Positions 6,229 to 33,665 of a DNA stretch of 64,000 nt are shown one piece after another. This stretch comes from Ignavibacteriota bacterium (lineage in GTDB: Bacteria > Bacteroidota > Ignavibacteria > UBA10030). The translations under genes and the position numbers were made by a program. The first letter of the stretch is position 1, and each line of letters begins with the position of its first letter. Location of the stretch: the NCBI GenBank assembly GCA_003142475.1, contig PLMK01000006.1:10225-74224 (forward strand). Direction: 5' to 3'. A model generated the notes under the pieces. It was not told the origin of the DNA and made no database searches. It saw only the letters and a program-made list of their open reading frames with translations.

Positions 6229-7839
6229 TTATTTTATCAGAACTAGTTTTTTTATGGTAATAAAATTGTCAGCGGTCATTTTATAAAAATATACGCCGCT
6301 TGAAATACCCGAGGCATTAAAAGTTAATGAAGACTGCCCTGCACTTCGTCTCTCGTTCACCAGTGTTGCAACACGTTCACCTACAATATTGAACACTTCT
6401 AAATTGACATAGCTCTTTTTTGGTAATTCAAAAGAAATAGTAGTCGTCGGGTTAAATGGATTTGGATAATTTTGATTGAGTTTATAACTAGTAGGTTGCT
6501 CATTCTCTTGTTGATCAACGGCAGTTGAACCTTTAGGAGCTAAAACACCACTATTTACTAAAGAATAAGTTTTTCCTCCAAGCGCACTATTTACAGAAAG
6601 AGTTGCATCATAATAGACATTGAAACCATTCCCTGTGATGTTGGTAATAGAGGTGCCGGAAATTCCGCTTACGTCACTCAATGTGGATAAGTACGAAGTC
6701 GCTGTAACAATCCATTTACTACTCGCATCGAGGGTCAGAGTTGCTGTATTGGCAATATTTGCTTTATTAATTGCGCCAGTAAATACAGAAGTATCTTGTA
6801 ACGTGATATATGCCTTACTATCAGCATCCACATGGATCAGACCAGACAAGATTTGATTCTTTGCAACAAAATTGGTGATACCTCCGCTTGAAGCCGAGGA
6901 ACCACCCCAGCTACCTTTGATGCATCTAATTAATGTATCGCAACTATTAACAAGAGATACGCCGTTCAATGTATAATGTGCTGTTGAATTGGTATTGTAA
7001 AACATACCACCCGCTGTACCAGTGTAAGTGAACGAACCGCCTGTCATCGTTAAATATCCATCAACTCCGGCAGCATCACCTGACATGCTTTGGTAAAGTA
7101 ATGATCCCCACTTGTTATAAGTACATTTTACAGTACAATTATTAAGTATTATTTTATTTGAGCCTTCTATTACAAGCGCTTCAGCTCCATTTGCTATTAA
7201 TGTTGCATCGGTACAAGTAATTATACCTGTTGAATAGATGGCCGCAGAATTATTTCCGTTTGAGGTATAAGATCCGCCATTGACCGTTATTGTACCTCCA
7301 CCCCTGTCTGTTGCTATGTTGCTCGAGCTGCCGCCAGAAGTTACAGCCGTATCATTATCGACCGTGATAGTTCCTCCGCCACTACACATGATAGCATGGG
7401 CTCCACCTCCTGTCATAGTATATTTATCATTTGTACTTGTGATACTGGCCGTTCCATAAGCAAAAACACCGTTTGCCCCTGAGCCGGTGGTTGTTATCGT
7501 ACAACCCGTAAGTGTAATTTGACCAGCAGAAGTTGCCAATGCACCAGCGTTAAGACCGTAAAAACTGCTGTTATCATTTGAGCTTGAGCTACCGCTTGTC
7601 GATATGGTGCAATTAGTTAAGGAAAGAATGCCGGAATTGAGAACATAAACTGCTGATTGATCGGTTGTAGAAGAAGTAATCGTTTCACCTGTTTTCGCGG
7701 CTGATCCACCATTCAATGTGTAAGTGCCTGCTAATGTATAACTCGTACTTCCACCTCCTGGCTGAGCCGGACTTTGAATTATGATTGCAACAGTTAGTAC
7801 CATCGCAATAACTATTGAACTTTTTAATTGTTTCATTGC
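6229..7839 (-). CDS. T9SS C-terminal-domain secreted protein with Gly/Ser/Thr-rich beta-helix repeats
   Basis: Ends in NYPNPFNPTTTISFELP...KKLVLIK (Por/T9SS sorting domain). The body is low-complexity G/S/T repeats typical of parallel beta-helix adhesins. Likely start is MKQLKSSIVIAMVL (signal peptide) at 7839; the track's longer ORF to 7974 would overlap the next gene. Confidence 0.7.
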   Translation of the reverse strand, partial: AMKQLKSSIVIAMVLTVAIIIQSPAQPGGGSTSYTLAGTYTLNGGSAAKTGETITSSTTDQSAVYVLNSGILSLTNCTISTSGSSSSNDNSSFYGLNAGALATSAGQITLTGCTITTTGSGANGVFAYGTASITSTNDKYTMTGGGAHAIMCSGGGTITVDNDTAVTSGGSSSNIATDRGGGTITVNGGSYTSNGNNSAAIYSTGIITCTDATLIANGAEALVIEGSNKIILNNCTVKCTYNKWGSLLYQSMSGDAAGVDGYLTMTGGSFTYTGTAGGMFYNTNSTAHYTLNGVSLVNSCDTLIRCIKGSWGGSSASSGGITNFVAKNQILSGLIHVDADSKAYITLQDTSVFTGAINKANIANTATLTLDASSKWIVTATSYLSTLSDVSGISGTSITNITGNGFNVYYDATLSVNSALGGKTYSLVNSGVLAPKGSTAVDQQENEQPTSYKLNQNYPNPFNPTTTISFELPKKSYVNLEVFNIVGERVATLVNERRSAGQSSLTFNASGISSGVYFYKMTADNFITIKKLVLIK

Positions 7840-7867
7840 TTTCCACCCTCCTGTAAAATATTTATCG

Positions 7868-8671
7868 TTATTCGTTCCTATCAGGACATTCTTCATGCAT
7901 CGGTCGATCTTGTTCATTCTCGGGTTTTGGCATGCGCGGCGGTCTTTGAGAATTTTTTTTTTGCAGTTCTTCATATTTCTTTTTCTGATTATCCGTTAGT
8001 ACAGCAGAGATTTTTGCATCGGTTTCCTTCCGCTGCTTTTCCATTTTCTCATGCATTGCTTCGCGTTCCTTCTTCATCTCTTCGCGCTTTGCCTCACGAT
8101 CTTTCTTTGCGGATTCGAACATCTTTTTCACTTCTTCACTTTGGGCCTCGAGGATTTTCTGAATTTTTGTTTCTTGATCGCTAGTAAAATTCAATTCTTT
8201 CTTTAACTCTTTCACAAATTCCTCGGGCGGCAGAGGCGGTTGATCCTCTGGCGGTATGTGTCCAAACATTGGCGGTTGACAATGAGTCTCTTCTTGGCGA
8301 CGATTAAATTTTTCACATTGCTTTTTCTGCATTTCTGTAAACGTTTCTTTTTGTTCTTTGGTTAACAAAGCGGTAATTTTTTCATCAGTTTCTTTTTTGA
8401 TTTTCATCATTGCTTCATGCGTTACTTTATATTCGTTTTCCGATGCTTTTGCTAACTTATCCATTTCGACCTTCTTTGCATCCATAATGGCCTTTATTTT
8501 TGCAATTTGTGCATCTGAAAGATTCAGATCTTTTTGAAGCTGTTCAATCCGATCTGGCTGATCTGCCGACGGCATGGGATGAGATTCCCGGGGTTGACCG
8601 TACACATACGTATAAACAATTAGGATGCAAACGACGAAAATCATTGATTTTAAAGCGACTGTATTTTTCAT
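7868..8671 (-). CDS. periplasmic LTXXQ-motif protein (CpxP/Spy-like), two repeats
   Basis: Signal peptide. Two LTXXQ repeats (LTKEQKETFTEMQKK and LTDNQKKKYEELQKK), highly charged helical repeats, and a Pro-rich linker. Confidence 0.65.
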   Translation of the reverse strand: MKNTVALKSMIFVVCILIVYTYVYGQPRESHPMPSADQPDRIEQLQKDLNLSDAQIAKIKAIMDAKKVEMDKLAKASENEYKVTHEAMMKIKKETDEKITALLTKEQKETFTEMQKKQCEKFNRRQEETHCQPPMFGHIPPEDQPPLPPEEFVKELKKELNFTSDQETKIQKILEAQSEEVKKMFESAKKDREAKREEMKKEREAMHEKMEKQRKETDAKISAVLTDNQKKKYEELQKKNSQRPPRMPKPENEQDRPMHEECPDRNE

Positions 8672-13130: not shown

Positions 13131-14837
13131 ATGAAACTCCTGCAAACATACGGTAGTGCAGTTATCATTGTTGTCATTGCCATGGTGATCATACTTCCGC
13201 TTCTCGCTTATTTACAATACACATGGCTTGGTCAAATAAGCGAACAAGAATATGAACGGATGAAACAAAATTTGCAGACTACTGCATTTCATTGTTCCAT
13301 GGATTTCAGCCGTGAAATAACAGACTTAATGAAATCCCTTGGTGGAACACTTATCGGCTCCGACGATGACGTAGAAAAGACATTGCACGAGAGAATTATA
13401 AAGTGGCAAACAATATCCACATATCCTGCGATTGTTTCCACAGAAATCAAGATCGGTTCTTCGCCTTCTCCTGAACAGACTGTTCAGATCAAAGCGGACG
13501 AAGAATCAATGCTTTTTCTATTTAAAGATTTATCCGCAATGGCTATACCAATTAAGAACCGATCTCATGAAGTTGTCTTAGTACCATTAAATCTTGAATA
13601 TATTTCATCTTCAATTCTGCCAAAGATTATAAAAACAAATTTTTCATCGATTACTAGATCTGAATATGATATCGTTATCATCAATGACAAAGGAAATCAT
13701 ATTTACAATTCAGTTGATACAACGAAGCATGATATTCTTCAGAAAGCCGATCTTGTTATTCCATTTTTAACCTTCCCGCAAGTGCCGCCGCTTTCTTCGA
13801 TGCCGCCCGATCGACCGATTCTTAATCGAATGCATCTATACCGAGAGAATCCGCCTGAACCATTTGAACGAAATCCGAGAGAACTCGAGCGCAGATATGA
13901 CCTTCCTCCCCCACAAGGAAATATGATGCCAAGGGAAGAGGAAAGAAGATTGAGAGAACGTGGATTATTCGAGATGCAGTTGAAACATCGTGAGGGTTCT
14001 TTAGAAATAGCAGTAAATAAAAATCGACTGCGAAATTTCGGAATTAGTTTCGGTGTTTTGATTTTACTCGGAGCAAGCATTGTCTTTCTTCTTCTTTCTA
14101 CAAATAGAGCACGGCGTCTTGCGCAACAGCAATTGGAATTCGTTGCCGGCATCTCACACGAACTGCGAACACCTCTCGCTGTTCTGAAATCAGCAGGCGA
14201 GAATCTTGCAGACGGCGTCATTCAGGAAAAAGACCGCACACGGAAATATGGAGAGCTTATTAAAAATGAAGTTATTCGTCTTTCCGATATGGTCGAAAAG
14301 GCATTAGCATATGCCGGTATCCACTCTGGAAAACAAAACTATGAACTGCGTTCTATCGATATTACACCTATCATTACAGAAGCGATACAAAATGCAAAAA
14401 AACTCTTGCCATCGTATAATTTTAAGGCCGATACAGTTATTGATCTAAATCTTCCACAAGTGCTTGGAGATGCAACTGCATTACAATCAGCAATAGAGAA
14501 CCTAATCGTCAACGGGATAAAATATAGCTTAGAAAAGAAGTGGATCAATATCGAAGCACATCAAGTGAAAAACTCAAATGGATCGTTTGTAGAAATCAAA
14601 GTTATAGATCGCGGTATCGGTATTGCAGCGGCAGATTTTTCCCACATTTTCAAACCTTTTTATCGAGGCCAAAATGCAATAGAAGGACAAATACAGGGCA
14701 GTGGCCTTGGATTGAGTATAACAAGACATATTATTGAATTGCATGGAGGAACAATTTCTATAAAAAGTTCGCCTAATGAAGGAAGTGTATTTACAATTCT
14801 CCTTCCTTCAATAATACAGGATGAAGAAAGTAAATGA
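13131..14837 (+). CDS. sensor histidine kinase (two transmembrane helices, periplasmic sensor domain)
   Basis: HisKA H-box AGISHELRTPLAVLK and HATPase_c motifs (NLIVNGIKYS, GSGLGLSI). The periplasmic part has a Pro/Arg/Glu-rich low-complexity stretch before the second transmembrane helix. Confidence 0.85.
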   Translation: MKLLQTYGSAVIIVVIAMVIILPLLAYLQYTWLGQISEQEYERMKQNLQTTAFHCSMDFSREITDLMKSLGGTLIGSDDDVEKTLHERIIKWQTISTYPAIVSTEIKIGSSPSPEQTVQIKADEESMLFLFKDLSAMAIPIKNRSHEVVLVPLNLEYISSSILPKIIKTNFSSITRSEYDIVIINDKGNHIYNSVDTTKHDILQKADLVIPFLTFPQVPPLSSMPPDRPILNRMHLYRENPPEPFERNPRELERRYDLPPPQGNMMPREEERRLRERGLFEMQLKHREGSLEIAVNKNRLRNFGISFGVLILLGASIVFLLLSTNRARRLAQQQLEFVAGISHELRTPLAVLKSAGENLADGVIQEKDRTRKYGELIKNEVIRLSDMVEKALAYAGIHSGKQNYELRSIDITPIITEAIQNAKKLLPSYNFKADTVIDLNLPQVLGDATALQSAIENLIVNGIKYSLEKKWINIEAHQVKNSNGSFVEIKVIDRGIGIAAADFSHIFKPFYRGQNAIEGQIQGSGLGLSITRHIIELHGGTISIKSSPNEGSVFTILLPSIIQDEESK

Positions 14838-15535
14838 TCTCAGGCCAAAAGAGAATTCTTTTAGTAGAAGATGAAACCGGCTTAGTGTTGACATTGACAG
14901 ATAGACTTTCAAGCGAAGGATATGCAGTTACACATGCTGGTGATGGAGAAAAAGGTGAGAAGCTCGCATCCGAAGGACATTTTGATGTAATTCTTCTTGA
15001 TGTGATGCTGCCGAAAAAGAACGGATTTGATATTATCAGGGATCTGCGTAAGCGAGGAGTCACCACGCCAGTTTTGATGCTAACCGCTCGGGGGCAACTA
15101 AACGAAAAGGTTGTCGGGTTGAAACTTGGTGCTGATGATTATCTCACGAAACCTTTCGAAACGCTTGAACTGCTTGCACGAATAGAATCACTCTTGCGGC
15201 GGCATGCACCGGTAATTATTCCTATCTTGGAACTTGCGTCATATTCTTTTGGATTATTTAAAATTGATTTTATAAAGATGGAAATAAAGCGCAAAGGCAA
15301 ACTGATCGAACTCTCAGCACGCGAATTTCTGCTACTTCGATACTTCATCGAACATCGCGGCAGTGTCTTATCCCGCGAAACTATTCTTAACGATGTGTGG
15401 GGTTATGATGCAATGCCCACCACAAGAACTATCGACACTCACATTACTTGGCTTCGGCAAAAATTAGAAGAGAATCCAAAATTTCCTAAGTACATTCTCA
15501 CAGTTCATGGATTCGGATACAAGTTTGTTGGATAA
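14834..15535 (+). CDS. OmpR/PhoB-family response regulator
   Basis: Receiver domain (ILLVEDE...DVILLDVMLP) plus winged-helix trans_reg_C (LSAREFLLLRYFIEHRGSVLSRETILNDVWG). Its ATG overlaps the histidine-kinase stop (ATGA). Confidence 0.9.
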   Translation: MISGQKRILLVEDETGLVLTLTDRLSSEGYAVTHAGDGEKGEKLASEGHFDVILLDVMLPKKNGFDIIRDLRKRGVTTPVLMLTARGQLNEKVVGLKLGADDYLTKPFETLELLARIESLLRRHAPVIIPILELASYSFGLFKIDFIKMEIKRKGKLIELSAREFLLLRYFIEHRGSVLSRETILNDVWGYDAMPTTRTIDTHITWLRQKLEENPKFPKYILTVHGFGYKFVG

Positions 15536-15754: not shown

Positions 15755-17260
15755 TTGTTGTTATTTGTCCAATGTTCCTTGTCTGCACAGCAACAAAAGA
15801 AGCCACAGGCGTTCCGGAGCACAGACGTTGAATCAATACCACTCGTTCTTCCCTCCACTCTTGATCTCCAGTTACTCGAAGAATTCGTTCTAATGCAGAA
15901 AGCAAATGCTGGCGAATCACCAGCACAGCATGAATTGGGATTACGCTATTTATTCGGTAAAGGATTTCCAGCCGATACCGCAAAAGCATCTTATTGGATT
16001 CAAAAAGCTGCAGATCAACACCTGCCGCCTGCGCAATTTAACCTGGGTATTTTACTAATGAATGGTCGCGGAGTTGAGTGGAATCCTTTTGAGGCATTCA
16101 AACAGTTTCGTGCCGCCGCCGAACAAGATATACCAGAAGCGCTTTATGTGACGGGACTAATGTACACTGAAGAACTTATTGTACCGCGGAGCTGGCCAAA
16201 AGCTTACGGCTTTTTTAAAAAGGCATCTGAACTCGGATCAGATGCCGCAAAGGTTACAAAGAAAGAAATGGAACGACGTGGGCTGGATAAGATAGACACT
16301 TTGGATATTATGGCGCCCAGAAAGGAACATCCGAAGAACAATACGACTCGGTCGATGCCAATCGATACAGGATCCAGTCTTTTGTTCATTGATTTCCACA
16401 CCGACACAACTTCAACTATTGAAGATACAACTCTTATTCGTGAAGCGTACCAAGGAATTGATACTCTCTCTCAATCGACAACCACTGAAAAGAACACGAC
16501 AGCAAGTCTGGACCCTAGCATTCAATCGTTATTGTCAAAAGTAGCAAAGTCTGGAAATCCGGAAGCACTTTGTCTGCTTGGACGTTGTTATGAACGTGGA
16601 CTAAATGTTCGCAAGGATATTATTCTTGCAGGTGTGTATTACTTGCGTGCTTTTATTCTTAACTCATATCGAGCACCGGCGTTGCTTTGGAAGTTGATGA
16701 ATACAGTAGAATTTGCCCGTGAACTTGAATTACGATCCTCAAAAAACGACCCAGATGCACTTTATCTGTGGTCTGGGATAACATCTATCGGTTTCAGTAA
16801 GCTGTTGAATGAGAAACAGGCATTCGATCTTCTCCAACGTGCGGCGGCGGCGGGACAATTGCCCGCGATGGTAGAATTAGGATCGTGTTACCTCACTGGA
16901 CGATGGGTTCAACAGGATCGTGATAAAGCAATTGAGTTATGGAATCGCGCCTCTCGATTAGGCAGTGTTGAGGCAGATATTCGTCTTGCGGGAGCAAATC
17001 TATTAGGCCAAATTCATACGGAAGAAATAGATTCTGCGTTGTTTGTTCTCCGAGTTACATCTCAAAATGGTTCATTGCTTTCGGATTTGACGCTAGCACA
17101 TTGCTATGAAAAAGGAATTGGATTGACACAGAACAAAGGTGAGGCGTACCGCATCTTTCATAAATCAATGCTGAGAGGAAGTGAGACAGCATTTCGTGCT
17201 CTTCGCAGTATGCATGATGAAATACGTCCCTCTACACAAGAATTTCAAATGCCAGACTGA
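15755..17260 (+). CDS. Sel1-repeat (TPR-like) secreted protein
   Basis: Repeated Sel1 motifs (A...LG..Y..G.GV..D...A..W..KAA.QG). TTG start; an alternative TTG lies at 15743. Confidence 0.6.
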   Translation: MLLFVQCSLSAQQQKKPQAFRSTDVESIPLVLPSTLDLQLLEEFVLMQKANAGESPAQHELGLRYLFGKGFPADTAKASYWIQKAADQHLPPAQFNLGILLMNGRGVEWNPFEAFKQFRAAAEQDIPEALYVTGLMYTEELIVPRSWPKAYGFFKKASELGSDAAKVTKKEMERRGLDKIDTLDIMAPRKEHPKNNTTRSMPIDTGSSLLFIDFHTDTTSTIEDTTLIREAYQGIDTLSQSTTTEKNTTASLDPSIQSLLSKVAKSGNPEALCLLGRCYERGLNVRKDIILAGVYYLRAFILNSYRAPALLWKLMNTVEFARELELRSSKNDPDALYLWSGITSIGFSKLLNEKQAFDLLQRAAAAGQLPAMVELGSCYLTGRWVQQDRDKAIELWNRASRLGSVEADIRLAGANLLGQIHTEEIDSALFVLRVTSQNGSLLSDLTLAHCYEKGIGLTQNKGEAYRIFHKSMLRGSETAFRALRSMHDEIRPSTQEFQMPD

Positions 17261-17503: not shown

Positions 17504-20326
17504 ATGCAAAAAATTAATGTGATAGTAATGAGAATAGCGCTTCTATTTCTTGCGTCATTATTTACTATTTTTAGCACAATTGCCCAAACTGAGAAAATGG
17601 CATTTAAAAGCCTGACTACAAGCATGGGTTTGTCTCATGGAGATGTGTTGTGCTTTTATCAGGACCATGACGGTTATATTTGGATCGGTACGACGGATGG
17701 TTTAAACAAATATGATGGTGTCGGATTTACTGTATACAAAAATAATCAAAAAGATTCCACTTCTTTAATAAGTAGTTACATTAACTGTATATATGAAGAC
17801 AAACAAAATAATCTCTGGATTGGATTACAAGACGGTTTATGCAGATATGACCGGGATAAAAATAATTTCGAGAGAATATCCTTCATTGATATTCACGATA
17901 ACAAATTTGGTAATTCTGTAAATCAAATATTTGAAGACAATAGTAAGGGGTTGTGGGTTGGATGCAGTGAAGGAGTATATTTATTTAACAGGGAAAATAA
18001 AAGATTTACTGCCTGCTTTAAGGATTCTTCCAACATAAATACTTTAATGAATTGTTCCGGTATATGCCAGGATAAAGACGGGATGCTTTGGTTCTCTTTT
18101 ACGCATGCTCCTAACCTTGGTATCATACAATACAATGCGGTAACAAATACGGCAATCCAATATAGCACACAAAATCCTCTATATAAATTAAGGGAAAATT
18201 CTGTCAATTGCTTAATGGTTGATAACCAAAATAATATTTGGGTTGGTCATATTTCAAGCGGCATTGAGGTAATCAATTTACGAACAAAAACAATTACCAG
18301 CTATCAGACTATTGTCAATAATCATAATTCTTTAAGCAATAACAATATTTTTTCGATGGCACAGAATAAGGATGGGAAAATACTTATCGGTACGAATGGA
18401 GGAGGTATAAGTGTTTTCGATCCCAGCACAAAATTATTCTGCCAATACACTGCATCGGAATCCGATCGGTCATTATTAAGTAATGTCATTCAAAGAATAT
18501 ACATTAGTCGCGATGGTATGGTGTGGATTGGATGTTGGGGGGCCGGCGTAAGCATTTATGATAAGCGCTTTGAACGGTTTGCACTATATAGACAAAATAA
18601 AGAAGACATAAATTCTTTAGATGGTAGCTCGGTTACGTGTTTTACACAAGATTTAAATGGAAATATATGGATAGCGACAGATGGCGGCGGAATTAATTCA
18701 TTTAATCCGTCTACAGGAAACTTCACAAGACACAGAAGCGATAGTAAAAATCCTCTGACGTTAACCAACAACAAGGTTTTGGCGCTCAATAAAGATAATA
18801 AGGGCGGTTTGTGGGCAGGTATGTGGCAGGGCGGATTAAACTATTTTAAAATAGACGGTGATAAACTTATTTTAAAGAAGAAATACAATTTTGTTGATGA
18901 AAACGATTTGACCAGTAATAGTATTTTTAATATTTATTTTAATAAAGACAATGAACTCTGGGTAGGAAATTATTTAAGCGGGGCATATAAATATGATCCC
19001 TCTACTGAAAAATTTAAATCCATAAAATTTATTTCAGGAGCAATTACGTACATTTCAATAAGGGATATTTTATGTGATTCCTACAACGACGTATGGTTTG
19101 CCTCTGATACTTATGGTTTAACAAGGATGAACCGTGAATCCGGAGAAATTGACAGATTTATGCATGACGAAAAAGATAGCACCAGCTTGATTAAAAACTC
19201 AATAAATGTTGTTTTTGAAGACAGCAAAAAACGTTTATGGGTTAGTGGTGATGGAGATGGATTGAATCTTTTTAACCGTAAAACTAAATCTTTTACACAT
19301 TATACTACTGAACAGGGATTGCCTGATAATTCACTTGTGGGGATATTGGAAGATGAACATGGTAATCTATGGATTAGCAGCCATAATGGTATTTCAAAGG
19401 CAACCATCGATTCAACAAATTCAATAAATGGAAAACTAGATCTTACATTCAGGAATTATACGGTTCAGGATGGATTACAAGGTAAAGTTTTTAATCGCTG
19501 GGCTTATTATAAAAGCAGAACAGGTGAAATGTATTTTGGCGGGCTTAATGGTTTCAACGTGTTTCATCCGGATAGTATAAAAGATAATAGTTATATACCC
19601 CCGGTCCATATTACTGATTTTTTACTGTTCAATAAACCAGTGATCATTGGAGCAAAAGGCTCGCCCCTGCAAAAGCATATTTCGCAAACAAAAAAATTGG
19701 TGTTAAATTATGACCAAACCAACTTTACATTTAAGTTTATTGCATTAAATTATATTTTCAGCGAAAAGAACCAATATGCTTATATAATGGAAGGTTTTGA
19801 GAAAGACTGGAATTATGTAGGAAATAAGAAAGAGGCTGTTTACACGAACCTTGACCCGGGTGAATATACATTCAGAGTCAAGGCTTCCAACAACGATGGT
19901 ATCTGGAACGAAGAAGGGACTTCAATCAAAATCATTATTCTGCCTCCGTGGTGGAACACCTGGTGGTTCTATAGCTTTATACTGGTTGTGATGATAGGAT
20001 TCGTGTTTGGTCTGTACCGATGGCGTGTTTGGCAACTCTTAGCAAGAGAAAAAATGTTAAAAGCCAATGTTAAAGAAGCCGTGGCAAAAATCAAAGTGCT
20101 AAACGGTCTTATCCCCATTTGTGCAAGCTGCAAGAAAATACGCGATGACAAAGGATATTGGGATCAGTTAGAAGGATATATCCAGAGTCACTCAGAAGCT
20201 AAATTTAGTCATGGTGTTTGTCCGGAGTGTGCTGAAAAGTTATATGGTGACTTTTATAAAAAAATGAAAAATCAACAAGATGTGACTTCCGCAATATCAC
20301 TGCCGCCAGATCTACCTAAGGAATAA
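17504..20326 (+). CDS. membrane sensor protein: periplasmic two-component-regulator beta-propeller/Y_Y_Y repeats, one transmembrane helix, cytoplasmic coiled coil and Cys-rich C-terminal domain (no kinase)
   Basis: Repeated WIGT..GL..YD units and the Y_Y_Y-like region are typical of Bacteroidetes hybrid sensors. Transmembrane helix WWFYSFILVVMIGFVFGLY. Instead of HisKA/HATPase it ends in IPICASCKKIRDDKGYWDQLEGYIQSHSEAKFSHGVCPECAEK. Confidence 0.75.
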   Translation: MQKINVIVMRIALLFLASLFTIFSTIAQTEKMAFKSLTTSMGLSHGDVLCFYQDHDGYIWIGTTDGLNKYDGVGFTVYKNNQKDSTSLISSYINCIYEDKQNNLWIGLQDGLCRYDRDKNNFERISFIDIHDNKFGNSVNQIFEDNSKGLWVGCSEGVYLFNRENKRFTACFKDSSNINTLMNCSGICQDKDGMLWFSFTHAPNLGIIQYNAVTNTAIQYSTQNPLYKLRENSVNCLMVDNQNNIWVGHISSGIEVINLRTKTITSYQTIVNNHNSLSNNNIFSMAQNKDGKILIGTNGGGISVFDPSTKLFCQYTASESDRSLLSNVIQRIYISRDGMVWIGCWGAGVSIYDKRFERFALYRQNKEDINSLDGSSVTCFTQDLNGNIWIATDGGGINSFNPSTGNFTRHRSDSKNPLTLTNNKVLALNKDNKGGLWAGMWQGGLNYFKIDGDKLILKKKYNFVDENDLTSNSIFNIYFNKDNELWVGNYLSGAYKYDPSTEKFKSIKFISGAITYISIRDILCDSYNDVWFASDTYGLTRMNRESGEIDRFMHDEKDSTSLIKNSINVVFEDSKKRLWVSGDGDGLNLFNRKTKSFTHYTTEQGLPDNSLVGILEDEHGNLWISSHNGISKATIDSTNSINGKLDLTFRNYTVQDGLQGKVFNRWAYYKSRTGEMYFGGLNGFNVFHPDSIKDNSYIPPVHITDFLLFNKPVIIGAKGSPLQKHISQTKKLVLNYDQTNFTFKFIALNYIFSEKNQYAYIMEGFEKDWNYVGNKKEAVYTNLDPGEYTFRVKASNNDGIWNEEGTSIKIIILPPWWNTWWFYSFILVVMIGFVFGLYRWRVWQLLAREKMLKANVKEAVAKIKVLNGLIPICASCKKIRDDKGYWDQLEGYIQSHSEAKFSHGVCPECAEKLYGDFYKKMKNQQDVTSAISLPPDLPKE

Positions 20327-20404
20327 AATCCCAACTCCAGCGACTGCTACACATGCTCCAATGATAGCACGCCAAGAGAGCTTCTCGTGAAATAGAATCC
20401 ATAC
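20309..20404. repeat. 96-bp direct repeat, copy 2 (functional convergent 3' ends of the sensor and EamA genes)
   Basis: See copy 1. Covers the 15-bp convergent overlap of 17504..20326 and 20312..21202. Confidence 0.8.
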
Positions 20405-21202
20405 AGTCGGAAGCATAAGAATAGGAACTGTTGCCATAATCGTTGCTGCAACAGCGACAGTTGTTGATGAAATGGCAATGAGGCTGAATGTTACACCAAG
20501 ATATGGGCCAAGGAACGCACCCAGCATTGTGAAATTGAATGCTTTCTGGTCATCTCTGAATACTATAAAAGGGTGTGTAAATCGTCCCGCATAATAATTC
20601 AACGGCAGCAGTACGATGGTAGCGGCAACAGCTCGAATAAAAGTCGCAATAAATCCATTAATTTCTCCTAACGCAAAAGCCTTTTTTGCCAATATAAGTC
20701 CACCAGCCTGACCCGCCGCACCAAGGAGAGCGTACCATAAACCAGTCATAGATATCGGAGTATGATGTGAAGATGGTTCTCTTCGTTCTAGGATAACAAG
20801 AGCAATACCGCCAAGAGTGATGATCATTCCAAGAATAGCTGTGGACGAAAGTGTTTCTTGAAGAAAAAAATACGCAAATACCGCAGTGATAGCGGGTGCC
20901 GTTGACATTATGAGCATACTAATTCGCGCATCGTTATATTCGTACGATTTAAAAAGAAACGTATCGCCGAAAACAAACCCAATTAAACCACTAATGGAAA
21001 GAAACATCACCTGTACAGCAGATACATTCACCTTAATATCGCAAACGACGATAGTCGCAAATAAGAAAACAACCGCCGCAATAAGCCGCACAACATTTAC
21101 GTACACAGAACCGACACGCGTAGTTCCTGCAGCAAAAGCAAGCGCGCTTCCTGTCCACATCACGGCTGTTATAAGAGCGCTTAATTCCCCGGTGTATGAC
21201 AT
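20312..21202 (-). CDS. EamA/DMT-family transporter
   Basis: Ten predicted transmembrane helices with two EamA-like halves. 296 aa. Confidence 0.8.
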   Translation of the reverse strand: MSYTGELSALITAVMWTGSALAFAAGTTRVGSVYVNVVRLIAAVVFLFATIVVCDIKVNVSAVQVMFLSISGLIGFVFGDTFLFKSYEYNDARISMLIMSTAPAITAVFAYFFLQETLSSTAILGMIITLGGIALVILERREPSSHHTPISMTGLWYALLGAAGQAGGLILAKKAFALGEINGFIATFIRAVAATIVLLPLNYYAGRFTHPFIVFRDDQKAFNFTMLGAFLGPYLGVTFSLIAISSTTVAVAATIMATVPILMLPTVWILFHEKLSWRAIIGACVAVAGVGILFLR

Positions 21203-24759: not shown

Positions 24760-25730
24760 ATGTTGTATATTTTAGGTAGTTAAATAACCTAAGGAACATT
24801 ATGAAAACCGTTGCAAAACATACCGAACCGAAAATACAAAGCTTATTAGATGTTGAAAAAGTATTCCCAGATGAAAAAACATGTATTGAATATATGATTC
24901 AAAAGCGTTGGAACGGTAAGCCAAGATGCCCACACTGTGATAGTGAAAAAGTATATCGCTATTCAGACAACAAGCGGTTCAAGTGCCCCGCTTGTGCTAA
25001 ACAGTTCACAATAAAAATTGGTACCATCTTTGAAGATTCACCTCTTTCATTGCAAAAATGGTTCTTTGCAATATTCTTACTTACAGCACACAAAAAAGGA
25101 ATTTCATCTTGTCAATTGGCAAGAGATATTCATGTAACACAAAAATCAGCATGGTTTATGACTCAAAGAATTCGTGAATTGATGAAAACAAATTCCTTTG
25201 AAAAGAAATTAAACGGAATAGTTGAAGCAGATGAAACTTACGTCGGCGGAAAGAAACATAGTGGCAAACGTGGACGCGGTTCTGAGAACAAAACGCCAGT
25301 ATTCGGAATGGTAGCAAGACAGGGCGACGTAAGGACTATGCCAGTTGAAAGAGTGAACGGCGAAACCTTAAAAGGACTTATCCGAAAGAACGTAGACCTT
25401 AACGCCGTAGTAATGACAGACGAATGGACTGCGTATAATAATCTTTCCAATGAATTCAAACATGAAGTAATCAACCACAGTTCAAAAGAATATGTGAGAG
25501 GCAATATTCACACAAACAACATTGAAAACTTTTGGAGTTTGCTTAAACGCGGTATAGTAGGAATTTATCATCATGTTGATCCTAAACATTTACATCGCTA
25601 TACCGATGAATTTCAGTATCGTTATAATTCAAGAAAAATTACCGACGCAGATAGATTCACGCAAATTTTAAGTCAATGCGAAGGACGCTTGACATATGCA
25701 ACGCTTATTAATAAATAGGTGTTATTATGA
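24760..25730 (+). mobile_element. IS1595-family insertion sequence (ends not resolved)
   Basis: Contains a single IS1595-type transposase gene. Terminal inverted repeats could not be identified by eye, so boundaries are approximate. Confidence 0.5.
24801..25718 (+). CDS. IS1595-family transposase
   Basis: N-terminal zinc-ribbon (CPHCDSEKVYRY...KCPACAKQF), then ...SLQKWFFAIFLLTAHKKGISSCQLARDIHVTQKSAWFMTQRIRE... and a DDE core (VEADETYVGG...MTDEW). 305 aa. Confidence 0.85.
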   Translation: MKTVAKHTEPKIQSLLDVEKVFPDEKTCIEYMIQKRWNGKPRCPHCDSEKVYRYSDNKRFKCPACAKQFTIKIGTIFEDSPLSLQKWFFAIFLLTAHKKGISSCQLARDIHVTQKSAWFMTQRIRELMKTNSFEKKLNGIVEADETYVGGKKHSGKRGRGSENKTPVFGMVARQGDVRTMPVERVNGETLKGLIRKNVDLNAVVMTDEWTAYNNLSNEFKHEVINHSSKEYVRGNIHTNNIENFWSLLKRGIVGIYHHVDPKHLHRYTDEFQYRYNSRKITDADRFTQILSQCEGRLTYATLINK

Positions 25731-28972: not shown

Positions 28973-31222
28973 TTAAATATTATTTTGATTCATTCGACGC
29001 ATCATTGCTATTGTTAAACCGCTAATAATCATCACGGAAGCAATCCACACGAGACTCATAAACGGCTTCACACTAATCTCAGCAATAAGAGTTTCAGGTT
29101 TTTGTATTCCCGTATGCATCATCCCTTTGACGTCAACCACATTAATTTGTACCTGTGACTTCTTTGTACCAGATGCCACGTTCATTGCCACAAGTTGAAA
29201 TCCAAGATGTCCATTCTTGAGATATGCTGTCTTCATCTCAAGATTTCCCTGTGTAGTATATGTTGTTGTTGGTACAATTTCCTGAACATCCTTTTCAGTT
29301 TTGATTTGAAGCACTGCGCCAATGGTGATAGAATTCTCTCCGCCCATCATGCCGCCTTTGCCATGCGCTCCCATATCAAATCTTTGGAAAGTAAGGGTAA
29401 TAGCACCGTAAATCTGTGGTTCATTTTTAACCAGAACAATCAGGTTCTGTTGATTTGTTTCTCCCTGCTCAATGGAAAGCGGCTCAAGATAGAAATCACC
29501 AGCCCACGAACTTACATAGTCTGGAATCCGCATCAGACTATTGTTGTAATTACTTTCGAACATTATTGGCTCGAGGAGTGAGAATTTACCATTGTATTCA
29601 ACGTTGATTGCATACTTTGTCTTCCCATCCTGCGCAGGTTTTGCACCGGTAAAATTCATTTGATAACCAAATGCAGACTTCGGCTGATTCAGTGGAAGCG
29701 CGATAGATTGTTTTTGTCCGTACCTGCCAGATGCGATGATGCCCAAAAATAGAATTGCCAATCCGACATGTGCGAGCGCTCCGCCGATAAAACGTGGTTG
29801 TTCCTTTGCAATTTGGTAACCATGACTGACACTGACAAAGAATGCGAAGAGCGATGTTAGTATGAGCAATGCAGCAAGAATATCATGCAAACCCATTATT
29901 ATGAAAATACCGAGAACGACAAAGGATAAGATGCCGGGAATAATAAGTTTTTTCATAAATAACGGTAGTTCTTCTTTGTTCCATTTTGTACGTAGACTGA
30001 GTCCGAGAAGTAACGTCATTAACACAGCAAGCGGAAGATTGGTACGATCGTAGAACGATGACTCAACCATAGAAGAATAAAAGAGCGGTTTGCTAGTTCC
30101 AAAAAGAATAACTGCTGCGCAGACTCCCATCACAATTGTGGCAATAGTGAGCATAGATTCGCGGTTGAACCATGCACTATGAGGGGTTGCGATTTTCAGT
30201 TCCTTCCACCGTAGAATAGTCATTCCAAATCCACAGAAGGCAATCACTCCTAACCATACGATAAGCAATGAATATGCAAACGTGCCGGGATCCACAAATG
30301 AGTGCACTGAAGCATTTGCAAGAATTCCACTGCGTGTTAAGAACGTACTATAAATAACAAGGAGATATGCCAGTACAGCAAGAATAAAGTTTGTGCGTGC
30401 AAGCTTGCCGGTGAACATCTGAATGAGCATTGTATGAATTAACATAATAGCAACCATCCAGGGAATGAGCGATGAATTCTCCACTGGATCCCAGCCCCAC
30501 CAACCACCCCAGCCCAGCACACCGTACGCCCAATAACCGCCGAGTATAAGACCGACACCAAGCGACATCGCACTGAAAAGTACCCAAGGCAAAGCATTAT
30601 GTAGCCACTTTTCGTACTTTTTCTGCCAGAGAGCGGCAATAGCGAGAACAAATGGAACTGCAAGTGAAGCAAATCCTAAAAACAATATTGGGGGATGGAT
30701 TATCATCCAAAAATTTTGCAATAATGGATTAAGTCCTTTGCCTTCCTGAGGAATAAATCCGGTTGGAACATTGTTCGCTGCTACATCCCAGATTAATTGA
30801 AACGGTGATTTAATTGCAATGAGCAGAAGAAGAAATGAAAGCACAAGCGAGTACGCCGCCATCGCCTCACTTTCTATACGTTCATGCAAGACAGTGCGCT
30901 GCAAAACAAATCCTATAACTGCGGCAAAAAACGCCCAGAGCAAAAAACTGCCTTCTTGTCCGGCCCAGAATGTCGTAATCAATAATTGTATGGGAAGATC
31001 GCGAGAGCTATAGTTTGCAATGTAATTGTACTCAAATCGATGCTGAAGAATGTATACCATAAGCAGTGCAGAAGCTGCGAAGACACCTATGAGGGAAATA
31101 AAAAAGCTTCCGCGCGCAACCAACAACAGCTTCTTTTTTGCTGTCGATATATAATAGAAGTAAGTTGATGCAAGCGTTGCTGCGAACGTAATCCAAATAA
31201 TAACCGAGCCTATCATTTTCAA
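28973..31222 (-). CDS. ccsBA: cytochrome c biogenesis system II protein, fused CcsBA-type (ResB/CcsA)
   Basis: Polytopic membrane protein carrying the CcsA tryptophan-rich WWD motif GWGGWWGWDPVENSSLIPW and conserved His residues. 749 aa with a large C-terminal periplasmic domain. Confidence 0.75.
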   Translation of the reverse strand: MKMIGSVIIWITFAATLASTYFYYISTAKKKLLLVARGSFFISLIGVFAASALLMVYILQHRFEYNYIANYSSRDLPIQLLITTFWAGQEGSFLLWAFFAAVIGFVLQRTVLHERIESEAMAAYSLVLSFLLLLIAIKSPFQLIWDVAANNVPTGFIPQEGKGLNPLLQNFWMIIHPPILFLGFASLAVPFVLAIAALWQKKYEKWLHNALPWVLFSAMSLGVGLILGGYWAYGVLGWGGWWGWDPVENSSLIPWMVAIMLIHTMLIQMFTGKLARTNFILAVLAYLLVIYSTFLTRSGILANASVHSFVDPGTFAYSLLIVWLGVIAFCGFGMTILRWKELKIATPHSAWFNRESMLTIATIVMGVCAAVILFGTSKPLFYSSMVESSFYDRTNLPLAVLMTLLLGLSLRTKWNKEELPLFMKKLIIPGILSFVVLGIFIIMGLHDILAALLILTSLFAFFVSVSHGYQIAKEQPRFIGGALAHVGLAILFLGIIASGRYGQKQSIALPLNQPKSAFGYQMNFTGAKPAQDGKTKYAINVEYNGKFSLLEPIMFESNYNNSLMRIPDYVSSWAGDFYLEPLSIEQGETNQQNLIVLVKNEPQIYGAITLTFQRFDMGAHGKGGMMGGENSITIGAVLQIKTEKDVQEIVPTTTYTTQGNLEMKTAYLKNGHLGFQLVAMNVASGTKKSQVQINVVDVKGMMHTGIQKPETLIAEISVKPFMSLVWIASVMIISGLTIAMMRRMNQNNI

Positions 31223-31386
31223 TCCTTCAATAGAGAGTTATCAATCACTGTTGGTTTACAACAAAAGAGAATACTCAAAGGTTTCATCACAAGGAATAGA
31301 CGGAATAAAACAACAGTGCGGGAGTTCTGGCTCCCGCACTTGTTAAGACAATGGATAATAACGCTTGGGTATTGTTACACCTGCAT

Positions 31387-32670
31387 TTACTTGTTGAGAT
31401 CTGCAATAGAATTATCCAAAAGAGCTTTAACATATTTATAGTTATGAATACCATGACTCTTTTCATATTGAATCTGTTGCAGGTTCCACAATGCACTAGC
31501 CTTGGAAGCCGGAAAAATTACTAACGGTTGTAAGGATGACGCATTAGCGGACCACGTGGAATCACCTGTGACCGCGCTGGCCGTCAGCGTTACCCATGGA
31601 ACAGCTTTTCCACTTTGTGGAAGCGACCACTTCTTCGTTATCGTTGTATCCATCATCATGCTAGCCAATTGTGATGTCTTTGCAATGATTTCATTGCGAA
31701 CCTGTGCCCAATGTGGATCGCTGGCATTGCTTGTTGAAACAGGACTAGAAGAATGACACCCGGTCACATTGCAGCCGTTTACATTGTACGATGGGCTTGT
31801 TGATCCAGAAGCAAGATATCTGACCCAGAATGTATGTCCGCCGTTTTGATTGCTGCTATTAACGGTCGCCATATGGCAATCCTCGCAACCGAGAGTACGC
31901 ATGCCGACCAATGTAGTATGATAGGAATTGTTGTACGGAGTAGGACCTGGAATTTCAACTCCGCCAAAACCTAAAAGAGTTTGTGTCGGTTCACCTGATA
32001 CGTGGTTATTCCATCTGGACGTATAGATCTTTGCTGTATCAGTAGTATTCGTCTTTGATGGATCGGGCTGCCACGATGCTGGTGTCGTGCCGGACTTCCA
32101 CATAAACGTGGAAGTCATACGTGGTTGATGGCACTTCACACATAGATTGGATGCATTACTACTATTCCATTGTTTCGTTGTTTGTCCTGCAACAAGTGTA
32201 AAAATATTCACTACACTGGAGTCACGCACAGTAAAATTAGCACGGCTATGTGGTGAATGGCAAGTAAAACAACCGGGAGGCGAAGCATTAGGATAACCTT
32301 GGTTACAAATTGGTCCGGATGGAGCAATTGGATTGAATGTTTCATTCGTAAAACCTTTGCTATAGCGTTCTAAGAAACCTTCATTCGTATGACAGCCAGC
32401 GCAATCAAATGAATTGCGAGCGAAATTACCGCCCTCAAAATGACTGGAGGCTTCATATTGAACTTCTTTAGTAAGTACACGATATGTTGTATCCAGATCT
32501 GGATTGTGGCAGGTCGCGCATTTAATACCGGGCGCAAAACCCTCGAGGGTGCTCTCTGAAGCATCTTTACCAGCAGGACCAGTAGGACCTTCTTTACAGC
32601 CAGACATAGCCGCAATTACAAAGATACCTATCCCCAAGATAGTAATACCCCAAAATATTTTTTTCACCAT
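31387..32670 (-). CDS. multiheme c-type cytochrome lipoprotein (5 CxxCH + 1 CX4CH)
   Basis: Lipobox AAMSGC. CATCH, CAGCH, CFTCH, CVKCH, CEDCH and CNVTGCH. Ser/Thr/Asn-rich linker regions. Confidence 0.8.
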   Translation of the reverse strand: MVKKIFWGITILGIGIFVIAAMSGCKEGPTGPAGKDASESTLEGFAPGIKCATCHNPDLDTTYRVLTKEVQYEASSHFEGGNFARNSFDCAGCHTNEGFLERYSKGFTNETFNPIAPSGPICNQGYPNASPPGCFTCHSPHSRANFTVRDSSVVNIFTLVAGQTTKQWNSSNASNLCVKCHQPRMTSTFMWKSGTTPASWQPDPSKTNTTDTAKIYTSRWNNHVSGEPTQTLLGFGGVEIPGPTPYNNSYHTTLVGMRTLGCEDCHMATVNSSNQNGGHTFWVRYLASGSTSPSYNVNGCNVTGCHSSSPVSTSNASDPHWAQVRNEIIAKTSQLASMMMDTTITKKWSLPQSGKAVPWVTLTASAVTGDSTWSANASSLQPLVIFPASKASALWNLQQIQYEKSHGIHNYKYVKALLDNSIADLNK

Positions 32671-32765
32671 AAAAACGCCTTTAGGCTAAAGTAAATAGTT
32701 AATTTTAGTAATTTTTATATTTTTGGGTTTTCGTTTTAAATATCTTATGAATTCTTTCAGTTTTA

Positions 32766-33656
32766 TTATCGAAAATTAAGCACTACTCCACCGGCAAGAT
32801 CAATTTTTCCGTTTATATGCTTTGCTTTGTTTTTAATATTGCCTGAAGCATCCATCACATCTCCATGACATGTATAACATATCGTCAAAGCGGAAGGTTT
32901 ATGACCATTCGGTGGCAAAGTATGACAAGTGGTCGTACTGCCGCAACTTTTTTCTACTGGACCACCATTCCAGCGAGGTGCATAACTAGCACCGGTCATT
33001 ATACTAGTGGTAAACATCGTGGTATCAGGCGAACCTACTTTTGGAAGACGCCACGCTCCATGGCAGAATGTATTCGTGCATGTCATAGAACTTGGATCAT
33101 ATGTCGGGGTAGGTGTTATACCACTGCTTGTGAGATTAGCCAAGGGATCATTCAGAATAACTTCTGCACGTCCATCTGCACTGATATGAGCTGGATCATA
33201 AATACTCGTCGGCATGTGATGGCACGCATCGCATAACATACTATGGGATGAATAGGTCCCGTTGCCGATAAAATGGATTTGATGAGCTCCTACACCATGG
33301 GCTGTATATGAAGTGCTTCCATCGAGAGCCGGTGCGGGGGGCATGCCATGACAGGTTGCACAATTTTGCGGACCACCAGGTGCTGTATGGCAAATATTGC
33401 ATGATTTTCCTGATATCCCTCCAGTATAGTCAGCACCATGACAAGATTGGCAGACGTGCATATCCCAATTATTATTTTGGATCGCTTTGCCATGAAAATT
33501 GGCAGAAGTAGTATCCGTCCACCCTTGTACATGAATTTGCAACTCATCACTCTCTTCTGTCGGCAAATCCTTCTTCAAATCGCTGCATGAGCTAAGGAAA
33601 AGAATAAGCACAAGAGTTGTAAAAATCGAGATTATATAGTGTCTCTTCATATTCAA
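32766..33656 (-). CDS. multiheme c-type cytochrome lipoprotein (5 CxxCH + CX4CH/CX5CH)
   Basis: Lipobox FLSSCS. CQSCH, CNICH, CATCH, CDACH, CYTCH, CTNTFCH and CGSTTTCH. Confidence 0.8.
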   Translation of the reverse strand: MNMKRHYIISIFTTLVLILFLSSCSDLKKDLPTEESDELQIHVQGWTDTTSANFHGKAIQNNNWDMHVCQSCHGADYTGGISGKSCNICHTAPGGPQNCATCHGMPPAPALDGSTSYTAHGVGAHQIHFIGNGTYSSHSMLCDACHHMPTSIYDPAHISADGRAEVILNDPLANLTSSGITPTPTYDPSSMTCTNTFCHGAWRLPKVGSPDTTMFTTSIMTGASYAPRWNGGPVEKSCGSTTTCHTLPPNGHKPSALTICYTCHGDVMDASGNIKNKAKHINGKIDLAGGVVLNFR

Positions 33657-33665
33657 TTCGCTCTA

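Follow-up and report, generated by a model that had tools for sequence, protein, structure and literature searches.

The window, the 64,000-nucleotide stretch of an Ignavibacteriota contig analysed here, encodes a transmembrane sensor that ends in a helix-Cys4 cassette, at the place where near-identical sensors carry a histidine kinase. The cassette seems to represent a large class of signalling output that has so far gone unrecognised. There is about an even chance, in our judgement, that it is a phosphorelay-independent output, probably stabilised by zinc, that acts on a shared cellular partner encoded at an unlinked locus. The layout of the gene, in window coordinates, is as follows.

17504..20326, + strand: complete sensor gene from the ORF list (940 aa plus stop, ATG start)
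17504..17590, + strand: N-terminal hydrophobic segment, aa 1-29, by Kyte-Doolittle scan; probable signal peptide or anchor, with a presumed cleavage site
17591..19738, + strand: tandem beta-propeller region, aa ~30-745, periplasmic (Pfam PF07494, 12 Reg_prop repeats)
19748..19942, + strand: Y_Y_Y domain, aa 749-813, membrane-proximal (Pfam PF07495, E 9.4e-20)
19952..20032, + strand: transmembrane helix TM2, aa 817-843, by hydropathy; the mosaic break point
20033..20104, + strand: conserved amphipathic signalling helix, aa 844-867, RVWQLLAREKMLKANVKEAVAKIKVL (conservation across 220 carriers)
20105..20263, + strand: Cys4 module, aa 868-920, NGLIPICASCKKIRDDKGYWDQLEGYIQSHSEAKFSHGVCPECAEKLYGDFY (family alignments)
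20120..20230, + strand: invariant C-x2-C-x29-C-P-x-C core, C873 to C909, 37 residues
20264..20323, + strand: C-terminal tail, aa 921-940, with the subfamily motif ...LPPDLPKE

The order is thus signal or anchor segment, propellers, Y_Y_Y, one transmembrane helix, a short helix and the Cys4 module. Pfam places Reg_prop on 12 stretches (E 2.2e-51), and aa 30-815 align end to end with residues 27-782 of PDB 4A2L (E 1.2e-111), which bears out the initial annotation of a propeller/Y_Y_Y sensor of the HTCS type. The part outside the cell is the sugar-sensor half of a Bacteroides-type kinase. That annotation counted a single transmembrane helix. A hydropathy scan gives two hydrophobic segments, at aa ~1-29 and aa 817-843; the second is the one transmembrane helix, TM2, and the first is most likely a signal peptide. 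HisKA and HATPase_c are without a match in Pfam and NCBIfam at E<=1, as are Response_reg, HTH_18/AraC, GerE and any other HTH in Pfam, in agreement with the earlier statement that kinase and receiver domains are lacking. Beyond the transmembrane helix there are 97 residues, 31 of them after C909. The signalling helix is uninterrupted between TM2 and the Cys4 module. C873, C876, C906 and C909 are the only cytoplasmic cysteines, and H903 lies among them; the spacer from CASCKK to the histidine is 24 residues and not 22, as first given. The LPPDLPKE tail motif is common to P0372, P0003, P0002, P0005, L001 and the second sensor of L002. The same 940-aa product is called, 100% identical, on 17 public contigs, so neither truncation nor a frameshift accounts for the ORF. 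Its NCBI product name is 'ligand-binding sensor domain-containing protein' and nothing more.

The sensor gene is flanked by the following.

13131..15535, + strand: classical HisKA/HATPase kinase and OmpR-type response regulator pair, upstream (Pfam)
15755..17260, + strand: Sel1-repeat protein, upstream (Pfam Sel1, E 1.2e-41)
20312-21202, - strand: EamA-family transporter gene, convergent, the next gene (ORF list and Pfam)

The EamA-family gene is convergent, as had been reported, and overlaps the 3' end of the sensor gene by 15 bp, leaving no room for a downstream kinase; a search for a separately encoded or frameshifted kinase domain gave none. A Sel1 gene, 70% identical, precedes two tandem module-bearing sensors at locus L002, and the upstream Sel1-repeat protein is possibly associated with the sensor, the synteny being seen in two genomes only. 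No evidence links the upstream kinase/response regulator pair to the sensor. The neighbours as a whole (kinase/response regulator, Sel1, EamA, SDR, M64 peptidase) include no SusC/D and no glycoside hydrolases, and the surroundings of the sensor gene contain neither a PUL nor other target genes.

The nearest sequence relatives of the sensor, at 68-79% identity, are HTCS-type histidine kinases from other contigs and organisms. Compared to the kinase-bearing P0277 and P0278, the window protein is 78% identical in the propellers and 89-90% in Y_Y_Y (90% for P0277), and across the module region the figure is 17-23%, ie noise. With P0372 the values are 33% in the propellers and 85% in the module. 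Identity to the kinase-type relatives stops at the start of TM2 (LPPWWNTWWF). This collapse at the transmembrane helix places the cassette in the kinase slot of near-identical sensors, and by sequence comparison the window gene is a mosaic made by a swap of output cassettes. It had been suggested that the Cys-rich tail occupies the output position, which fits both the exchange of kinase for module on near-identical sensors and the finding that elsewhere the cassette ends proteins otherwise made of input domains only.

Since the closest sensors have kinases, the gene could be taken for a decayed or truncated hybrid kinase with a meaningless remnant as its tail, the more so as an in-frame stop interrupts the module of the close homologue L001 and frameshifts account for several of the short mini-proteins. 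Such decay is scarcely credible for an intact ORF found identical on 17 contigs. Strong purifying selection acts on the family of its tail, which numbers more than 24,000 clusters, and P0389 and P0394 share its TM-helix-module layout; conservation across the family refutes the idea of a remnant.

A survey of proteins with the same module did find a shared module, which turned out to be no peculiarity of one protein; it is a very large uncatalogued domain family. At E<=1e-3 the family numbers 24,176 cluster representatives, and 19,906 are left at E<=1e-10, with clusters counted at 50% identity; searches with the tail alone reach E-values as low as 1e-31, so the motif stands far above chance. 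At least 583 loci were confirmed in species-representative genomes, and the spread covers at least 12 phyla. Among the matches listed are Bacteroidota, Ignavibacteria, Desulfobacterota, Nitrospirota, Nitrospinae, Acidobacteria, Spirochaetes, PVC, Myxococcota, Gammaproteobacteria and others. Viral contigs gave 3 matches in 2.9 million, ie the cassette is essentially absent from them. On plasmids there was a single GAF-module gene, disrupted by IS21. A homologue search started from a divergent module sequence returned zero candidates. Stand-alone mini-proteins were considered as clean models of the module and rejected, P0003 and P0021 being frameshift fragments of longer genes; P0118 is probably another, and P0076 may be the only one of them that is free-standing.

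The cassette is always the last domain, with 7-48 aa beyond the last Cys in 79/79 ORFs. Two-module proteins are tandem duplications of an input-helix-module unit, and no Rosetta-stone fusions C-terminal to the module were found. The domains that precede it in 78 carriers are PAS (29), REC (16), HAMP (6) and Reg_prop/Y_Y_Y (5), together with MASE3, GAF, 7TM, SBP, Cache and CHASE; among the 25 families most commonly fused to the cassette none is an enzymatic or DNA-binding output. The REC-fused carriers are short (median 226 aa), retain the acceptor Asp and adjoin a kinase more often (4/11 vs 7/60). Their conserved Asp and kinase adjacency leave the module as the sole candidate output of these proteins. 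Signalling helices nearly always join two signalling domains (PMC1592074).

The tail has no significant match in Pfam (2025) or NCBIfam (June 2026), in PDB sequences by single-sequence and profile search, or in the PDB by Foldseek, so a match to a characterised domain, which was looked for alongside the missing kinase, is likewise absent. Sub-threshold Pfam matches are at the level of the knuckle: DUF3039 over 11 residues in 24/25 module sequences and zf-C4pol in 12/25. DUF7558 matches weakly, also below threshold, in 5/25. None of zf-HC2/ZAS, DksA/TraR, zinc ribbons or SEC-C rises above the Pfam gathering threshold. Literature searches by literal motif strings gave nothing relevant to the module, and concept searches gave only HalOD2 and BguR as analogues and no paper that describes the cassette. 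Proteins that end in it are presently labelled 'PAS domain S-box protein', 'response regulator' or 'ligand-binding sensor domain-containing protein'.

The conserved unit, earlier put at ~50 aa, is a cassette of ~80 aa, made up of a helix of ~25 residues and a rigid 37-residue Cys4 knot. The core spans exactly 37 aa, with zero indels, in 343/343 module sequences. Across 220 carriers the helix is hydrophobic at -20/-17/-13/-10/-7, with Gly at -5 in 97% and Pro at -2 in 100%, and it ends in a fixed register as ...V/I-K-x-L-x-G-L-L/I-P-I-C, to which the window protein conforms (AKIKVLNGLIPIC). Within the module the signature CKKIRDD-x-GYW, E, Y, F, SH-G-x-CP is invariant in three alignments, and the window protein again conforms (ICASCKKIRDDKGYWDQLEGYIQSHSEAKFSHGVCPEC). 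Modules from different phyla are 55-70% identical. An AF2 model from a 25-sequence alignment (pLDDT 62) was too weak for use; a model from 121 sequences, which reached pLDDT 80 in 1/5 models only, has a strand-helix-helix-strand-helix fold with both CxxC motifs at helix N-termini. The module His is dispensable, as H-to-E/Q variants occur there. These variants, together with the invariance of the cysteines, suggest that the four Cys bind one metal ion. It is most likely structural, and probably Zn2+.

A metal site raises the question of whether the module instead senses redox state or metal, through a rubredoxin-like Fe(Cys)4 site or a thiol/Zn redox switch, and serves as an extra input that gates dimerisation. 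The C-x2-C-x29-C-P-x-C ligand spacing is identical to that of the rubredoxin sequence compared, which we take to be that of Clostridium pasteurianum; the carriers among the matches listed are mostly anaerobes or microaerophiles (Desulfobacterota, Nitrospirota, Ignavibacteria, Spirochaetes, Syntrophales), and CxxC motifs at helix N-termini, as in the model, resemble those of thiol-redox proteins. Homology of the cassette to rubredoxin was nevertheless rejected: hhalign gave 3% probability and aligned only an 8-residue knuckle, Pfam Rubredoxin (PF00301) is unmatched even at E<=1, and the predicted secondary structure and fold are unlike those of rubredoxin. The ~15 non-Cys positions that are invariant or nearly so exceed the needs of a bare metal site, and a sensing role would leave the REC-module and PAS-module proteins without an output. 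We regard a redox or metal-sensing function as improbable.

BguR, SusR and ToxR are membrane-tethered one-component regulators, and the window protein could be another, regulating transcription or RNA, with the Cys4 knot as a nucleic-acid-binding zinc finger in place of the HTH. BguR wires the same sensor type straight to a DNA-binding domain, Cys4 modules frequently bind nucleic acid, the KKIR basic patch of the module is invariant, and DNA or RNA binding was suggested by Galperin for the loosely analogous HalOD2. Against this, the module carries a net negative charge (median -1, with pI ~6.0, over 342 modules; -2 in the window protein), and no HTH or known DNA-binding zinc-finger family scored above cutoff. 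Its polar surface is invariant between phyla and among paralogues within one genome, whereas the DNA-binding outputs of paralogous regulators normally diverge for different targets, and no gene is conserved beside the carriers as a common target. Direct regulation of transcription or RNA is unlikely.

Paralogues also occur side by side. Several different sensors within one array carry nearly identical modules (four at L089, two at L081 and two at L002). Apart from kinases and PAS/REC proteins, the carriers have no conserved neighbours or operon partners; an ECF sigma lead at L003 was rejected as a general link because that sigma family recurs at one other locus only (L022). Near-identical modules within arrays, combined with the lack of a conserved neighbouring family, suggest a partner that is shared and unlinked. 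The same arrays, the absence of a partner gene, the placing of the module after a dimerising helix, and a periplasmic domain 78-90% identical to that of kinase-bearing relatives could alternatively point to a homotypic assembly or clustering domain, by which different sensors co-assemble, or kinase-less sensors heterodimerise as decoys with kinase-type paralogues, and signal in mixed complexes instead of through a dedicated partner. However, no mixed array was seen: L087 and L088 are all-kinase, L089 and L081 all-module, and the kinase-type relatives come from other contigs and organisms. Clustering would moreover give the REC-module proteins no route to a cellular response, and we consider it quite improbable.

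In the preferred reading, that of an output acting on a shared partner, the window protein would be a dimeric transmembrane receptor. Its periplasmic half would be a tandem-propeller and Y_Y_Y ligand sensor of the Bacteroides HTCS kind, and its cytoplasmic half an amphipathic signalling helix continuous with the transmembrane helix, then a Gly/Pro break and the Cys4 knot. Ligand bound outside may alter how the two transmembrane and signalling helices pack, in the way suggested for the 4A2L sensor, and this would reposition the pair of Cys4 modules in which the paired helices end. The repositioned modules would then change their binding to a putative conserved cytoplasmic partner encoded elsewhere, the receptor itself presumably performing no phosphotransfer.

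A more far-reaching conclusion is offered tentatively, with the chances somewhat against it: that the cassette is a major new class of metal-stabilised transmitter by which many sensors per cell address a single conserved partner, while the receptor itself neither transfers phosphate nor makes a second messenger. If true, Desulfobacterota, Nitrospirota, Acidobacteria, Spirochaetes, FCB, PVC and other phyla would have a signalling route that runs alongside histidine kinases, cyclases and chemoreceptors. Censuses of bacterial signal transduction sort proteins by output domain, and those that end in the cassette presently count as output-less. Given its many clusters, its very strong conservation and its interchangeability with kinase cores, the module is probably the mark of a sizeable part of signalling in environmentally important anaerobes that is still unexplored. 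Once the partner is known, thousands of orphan sensors and response regulators would gain an output together, and it would become clear how a periplasmic HTCS-type sensor can signal without ATP. Being small, rigid and tolerant of swaps between sensors, the module could also serve receptor engineering.

Among known systems, the HTCS sensors (PDB 4A2L/4A2M) share with the window protein a signal peptide, two beta-propellers, Y_Y_Y and a single transmembrane helix. They differ in having HisKA, HATPase_c, REC and AraC domains, and in a cytoplasmic part of roughly 250-550 residues compared to 97. The histidine-kinase transmitter (DHp + CA) takes the same slot as the cassette, after the signalling helix and behind the same inputs, and the two are interchangeable on near-identical sensors; the cassette has neither ATP-binding domain nor H-box, and at ~80 aa cannot be a kinase. 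HalOD2, a haloarchaeal response-regulator domain proposed as an output by Galperin et al. 2018 and reported from only a few halobacteria (PMC5847659), resembles the REC-module carriers: the receiver is followed by a helical (HalX-like) segment and two CXXC motifs, a predicted zinc finger. Compared by description only, it has 20-25 residues between the CXXC pairs, whereas the cassette has an invariant 29. BguR, a propeller-Y_Y_Y-TM-linker-GerE protein, signals without a kinase (bioRxiv 10.64898/2026.01.10.698779). By coincidence both it and the window protein are 940 aa long. The output of BguR is a GerE HTH with a defined DNA motif beside a PUL. The window protein ends in an acidic Cys4 module, lacks an HTH and has no PUL in its vicinity. 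BguR and SusR nevertheless follow the same logic as the window protein, in which an HTCS-like sensor, one transmembrane segment and a helical linker lead, without phosphorelay, to a small output at the C-terminus.

The open reading frame at 17504-20326 (+) is present as the initial annotation described it, and its product has 940 amino acids. In Pfam it matched Reg_prop in twelve repeats (E 2.2e-51), with Y_Y_Y at aa 749-813 (E 9.4e-20), and, in agreement with the earlier claim that phosphorelay domains are missing, had no HisKA, HATPase_c or receiver. The sole addition from NCBIfam was a propeller similarity to PorZ, below threshold. Residues 27-782 of PDB 4A2L, a solved periplasmic sensor of a Bacteroides hybrid two-component system (HTCS), match aa 30-815 end to end (E 1.2e-111), and the periplasmic half is ordinary. 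Hydropathy gave two segments:

aa 1-29, N-terminal signal/anchor segment
aa 817-843, single transmembrane helix (TM2), followed by basic residues

The cytoplasmic part is 97 residues long, with the pattern C873-x2-C876-x29-C906-P-x-C909 and H903; the spacer from CASCKK to the histidine, previously put at 22 residues, counts 24. The 3' neighbour, an EamA transporter gene, is convergent as had been claimed and overlaps the end of the sensor gene by 15 bp, so that no kinase is concealed downstream. NCBI labels the protein 'ligand-binding sensor domain-containing protein', nothing more. Since 17 independent public contigs carry the identical 940-aa protein, the gene is intact and real. The alternative that it is a decayed remnant is effectively refuted.

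The most direct evidence for the C-terminal cassette (amphipathic helix plus Cys4 module, ~80 aa) as an output is an output swap, as judged from alignments. The closest relatives of the window sensor end in HisKA and HATPase_c or in a hybrid kinase, and kinase-type database proteins are 79% (P0277), 76% (P0278), 71% (P0282) and 68% (P0280) identical to it. By segment, P0277 and P0278 share 78% in the propellers, 89-90% in Y_Y_Y and 32-39% in TM2, followed by noise; the break point is LPPWWNTWWF, at the start of TM2. Another protein, P0372, gave the reverse pattern, with 33% in the propellers, 85% in the module and 60% in the tail. On these identities, which break at the start of TM2, the gene is a mosaic, with a TM-helix-Cys4 cassette in place of the TM-coil-kinase of its close relatives. 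Other outputs found on this sensor type are SpoIIE phosphatase, HisKA_3, HWE-type and AraC, and by such comparison the propeller/Y_Y_Y sensor is clearly a modular input. Sensors with the module straight after the TM helix carry a juxtamembrane motif, (Y/H)R(L/W)RVW(Q/C)(L/I/F)...:

window 19952-20060, juxtamembrane motif; also in the sensor of L001 (Bacteroidota MAG SPRUCE 214) and sensors 1 and 2 of L002 (an Ignavibacteriaceae MAG)

Kinase-type relatives lack this motif, so the cassette that was exchanged seems to take in the cytoplasmic end of the TM helix.

A tail-only query (63 residues) gave at least 499 matches, all significant, with E down to 1e-31. An exhaustive profile search over 1.84 billion cluster representatives (one protein per cluster at 50% identity) found 24,176 proteins with the module at E<=1e-3, 19,906 at E<=1e-10 and 4,965 at E<=1e-30. 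In a genome scan with one genome per species, at least 583 module loci were confirmed among at least 600 pattern matches. Going by record titles, Desulfobacterota dominate the matches listed, which also include Bacteroidota, Ignavibacteria, Nitrospirota, Nitrospinae, Acidobacteria, Spirochaetes, Leptospirales, Verrucomicrobia, Victivallales, Myxococcota, Gammaproteobacteria, Rifleibacteriota and Neomarinimicrobiota. The best-scoring of those listed, L001:3622-6342 (67% identity to the tail), has the layout of the window sensor. An in-frame stop falls inside its GYW motif, which is invariant in the family (DDKG*WNQLE), and marks either a pseudogene or a mistake in the assembly.

Identity within the module across phyla is 55-70%, about 20 positions are invariant (consensus LSGLLPICASCKKIRDDKGYWNQIExYIxxHSEAEFSHGICPECAxKLYP), and in all 343 sequences compared, none of which has an indel, the first and last Cys delimit a span of exactly 37 residues. 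The conserved unit reaches ~25 residues upstream into an amphipathic helix, EEREKLIxELQEALxKVKTLSG, in which hydrophobic residues recur in a heptad-like pattern; after it come Gly at -5 (97%) and Pro at -2 (100%). In the window sensor this helix starts right at the end of TM2. In a few members E or Q stands in for the His preceding CPxC, leaving the four Cys as the universal candidate ligands. They could belong to a nucleic-acid-binding zinc finger, but this is unlikely: the module carries a net negative charge (median -1, pI about 6; -2 in the window protein) and its surface is invariant among paralogues, two features that together speak against binding to specific DNA sequences. A redox or Fe centre serving as input is less likely again.

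The module is the last element in all 79 carrier ORFs (proteins with the module) of the genome scan, with 7-48 residues beyond the final Cys, and likewise in the best 150 of the 24,176 representatives, excepting tandem fusions in which input-helix-module occurs twice. The domains beside it in 78 carriers were PAS (29), receiver (16), HAMP (6) and Reg_prop with Y_Y_Y (5), with MASE3, GAF, 7TM, SBP_bac_3, dCache, sCache, CHASE, VUPS and MASE6 as further inputs; no kinase, cyclase, phosphodiesterase or HTH was among their 25 commonest families. Receiver-fused carriers (median length 226 aa) keep the phospho-acceptor Asp, and their phosphorylated receiver would have nothing to control other than the module. 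A histidine kinase lies within two genes of 4/11 of these, compared to 7/60 of other carriers.

Many 'stand-alone' module proteins of 62-111 aa in the protein database look like 3' fragments of frameshifted genes from error-prone assemblies, the parent genes being PAS-module or propeller-PAS-module (loci L081, L082, L083). Two of the four checked were clearly fragments and a third probably so; free-standing counts from such databases would be inflated. One mini-gene, L084:4951-5207, may be a truly free-standing helix-module. Its coiled-coil frame runs upstream past the called ATG to a GTG, and a ~24-bp element is duplicated within the 436-bp gap upstream (caaaccgtaatgtgatgacca...); the mini-gene may therefore be what an insertion left behind. 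The sole plasmid match (L086, Dongshaea marina plasmid NZ_CP028898.1, 31166-41303) is an unannotated remnant; an inserted IS21 transposase parts it from a GAF-domain gene, the two being pieces of one GAF-module gene that an IS element has interrupted.

When all ORFs of 80 loci were clustered, no neighbour family occurred in more than 4 loci, signalling proteins excepted. Among 127 families detected in 93 putative operon partners of carriers, HATPase_c occurred in 8 and PAS or REC in 5-7, the rest each in at most 2 proteins; a close same-strand neighbour was absent for 25/71 carriers. Tandem arrays of module-bearing sensors (4 in L089, 2 in L081, 2 in L002) have nearly identical modules and differing sensor parts. 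Kinase-type relatives form separate, all-kinase arrays (L087, L088); each of these propeller/Y_Y_Y arrays has 2-4 paralogues of one output type. Three L089 modules are almost identical, tail included, pointing to a recent duplication or to gene conversion. The invariant polar surface, the many sensors per genome and the lack of a linked partner suggest that the modules have a single conserved partner in common, with its gene elsewhere, or else that they co-assemble homotypically. That the module is a homotypic clustering or decoy domain is the least probable of the three alternative roles.

No PUL or other evident target lies near the sensor gene in the window, where other genes include:

6229-7974, T9SS sorting-tail protein
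13131-14837, histidine kinase in which an unusual low-complexity stretch rich in Pro, Arg and Glu (…PPLSSMPPDRPILNRMHLYRENPPEPFERNPRELERRYDLPPPQGNMMPREEERRLRERG…) separates the first TM segment from the second TM/HisKA region
15755-17260, Sel1-repeat gene directly upstream of the sensor
24801-25718, IS1595-family transposase (DDE_Tnp_IS1595 + Zn_ribbon_IS1595), ~4.5 kb downstream of the sensor gene
28973-34877 (-), CcmF-like cytochrome c assembly protein and two multihaem cytochromes (Cytochrome_C7, MtrC/MtrF-like)

The cytochrome cluster and the T9SS sorting-tail protein together suggest an Ignavibacteria-like member of the FCB group whose respiration uses multihaem cytochromes. A Sel1 homologue (L002:17-898) lies upstream of the two L002 sensors and is 70% identical to that in the window, compared to ~29% for the sensor propellers; the synteny is a lead resting on two genomes only. 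Module tails in the FCB group end in a common extra motif, PPxDxPKE, which a TPR/Sel1 protein could in principle bind.

Starting from what is observed, namely the domain order, the family and the kinase-for-cassette exchange, we propose that the receptor would be a dimer, like 4A2L-type sensors, in which periplasmic ligand binding would move the two TM helices relative to each other; for the 4A2L sensor, a scissor-like closing has reportedly been proposed. The change would run down the continuous TM and signalling helix to the pair of metal-stabilised Cys4 knots, whose rearrangement would alter how tightly they bind a cytoplasmic partner common to such receptors. We regard the mechanism as a whole as evenly balanced between right and wrong.

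The module has no model in Pfam-A (to 2025) or NCBIfam release 20 (June 2026); recurrent Pfam hits were sub-threshold and at zinc-knuckle level (DUF3039 over 11 residues, zf-C4pol). PDB searches with the single sequence and the profile gave no match. AF2 (121 sequences) predicted strand, CxxC-helix, long helix, strand and CPxC-helix, with pLDDT 80 in the best model and 60-66 in the remaining four. The Cys spacing is that of Clostridium pasteurianum rubredoxin, but rubredoxin homology was rejected (hhalign probability 3%). The literal motif strings were found in no paper of the searchable literature. The cassette is thus absent from Pfam, NCBIfam, PDB and that literature, and may be described beyond it. 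The window sensor belongs with the modular receptors of bacteria, and its output domain is undescribed. The new element is this output, which is compact, strongly conserved, exchangeable with kinase cores and shared by over 24,000 protein clusters. Tentatively, and with the balance somewhat against it, the cassette may be a major unrecognised output class.

A concept search of the literature gave only two loose analogues. HalOD2 of haloarchaeal response regulators has a helical part, then two CXXC motifs 20-25 residues apart (PMC5847659). BguR is a one-component regulator with the order propeller-Y_Y_Y-TM-linker-GerE (preprint 10.64898/2026.01.10.698779). Like the window sensor it is an HTCS-like sensor without phosphorelay, and is a recent precedent for the design of the whole protein.
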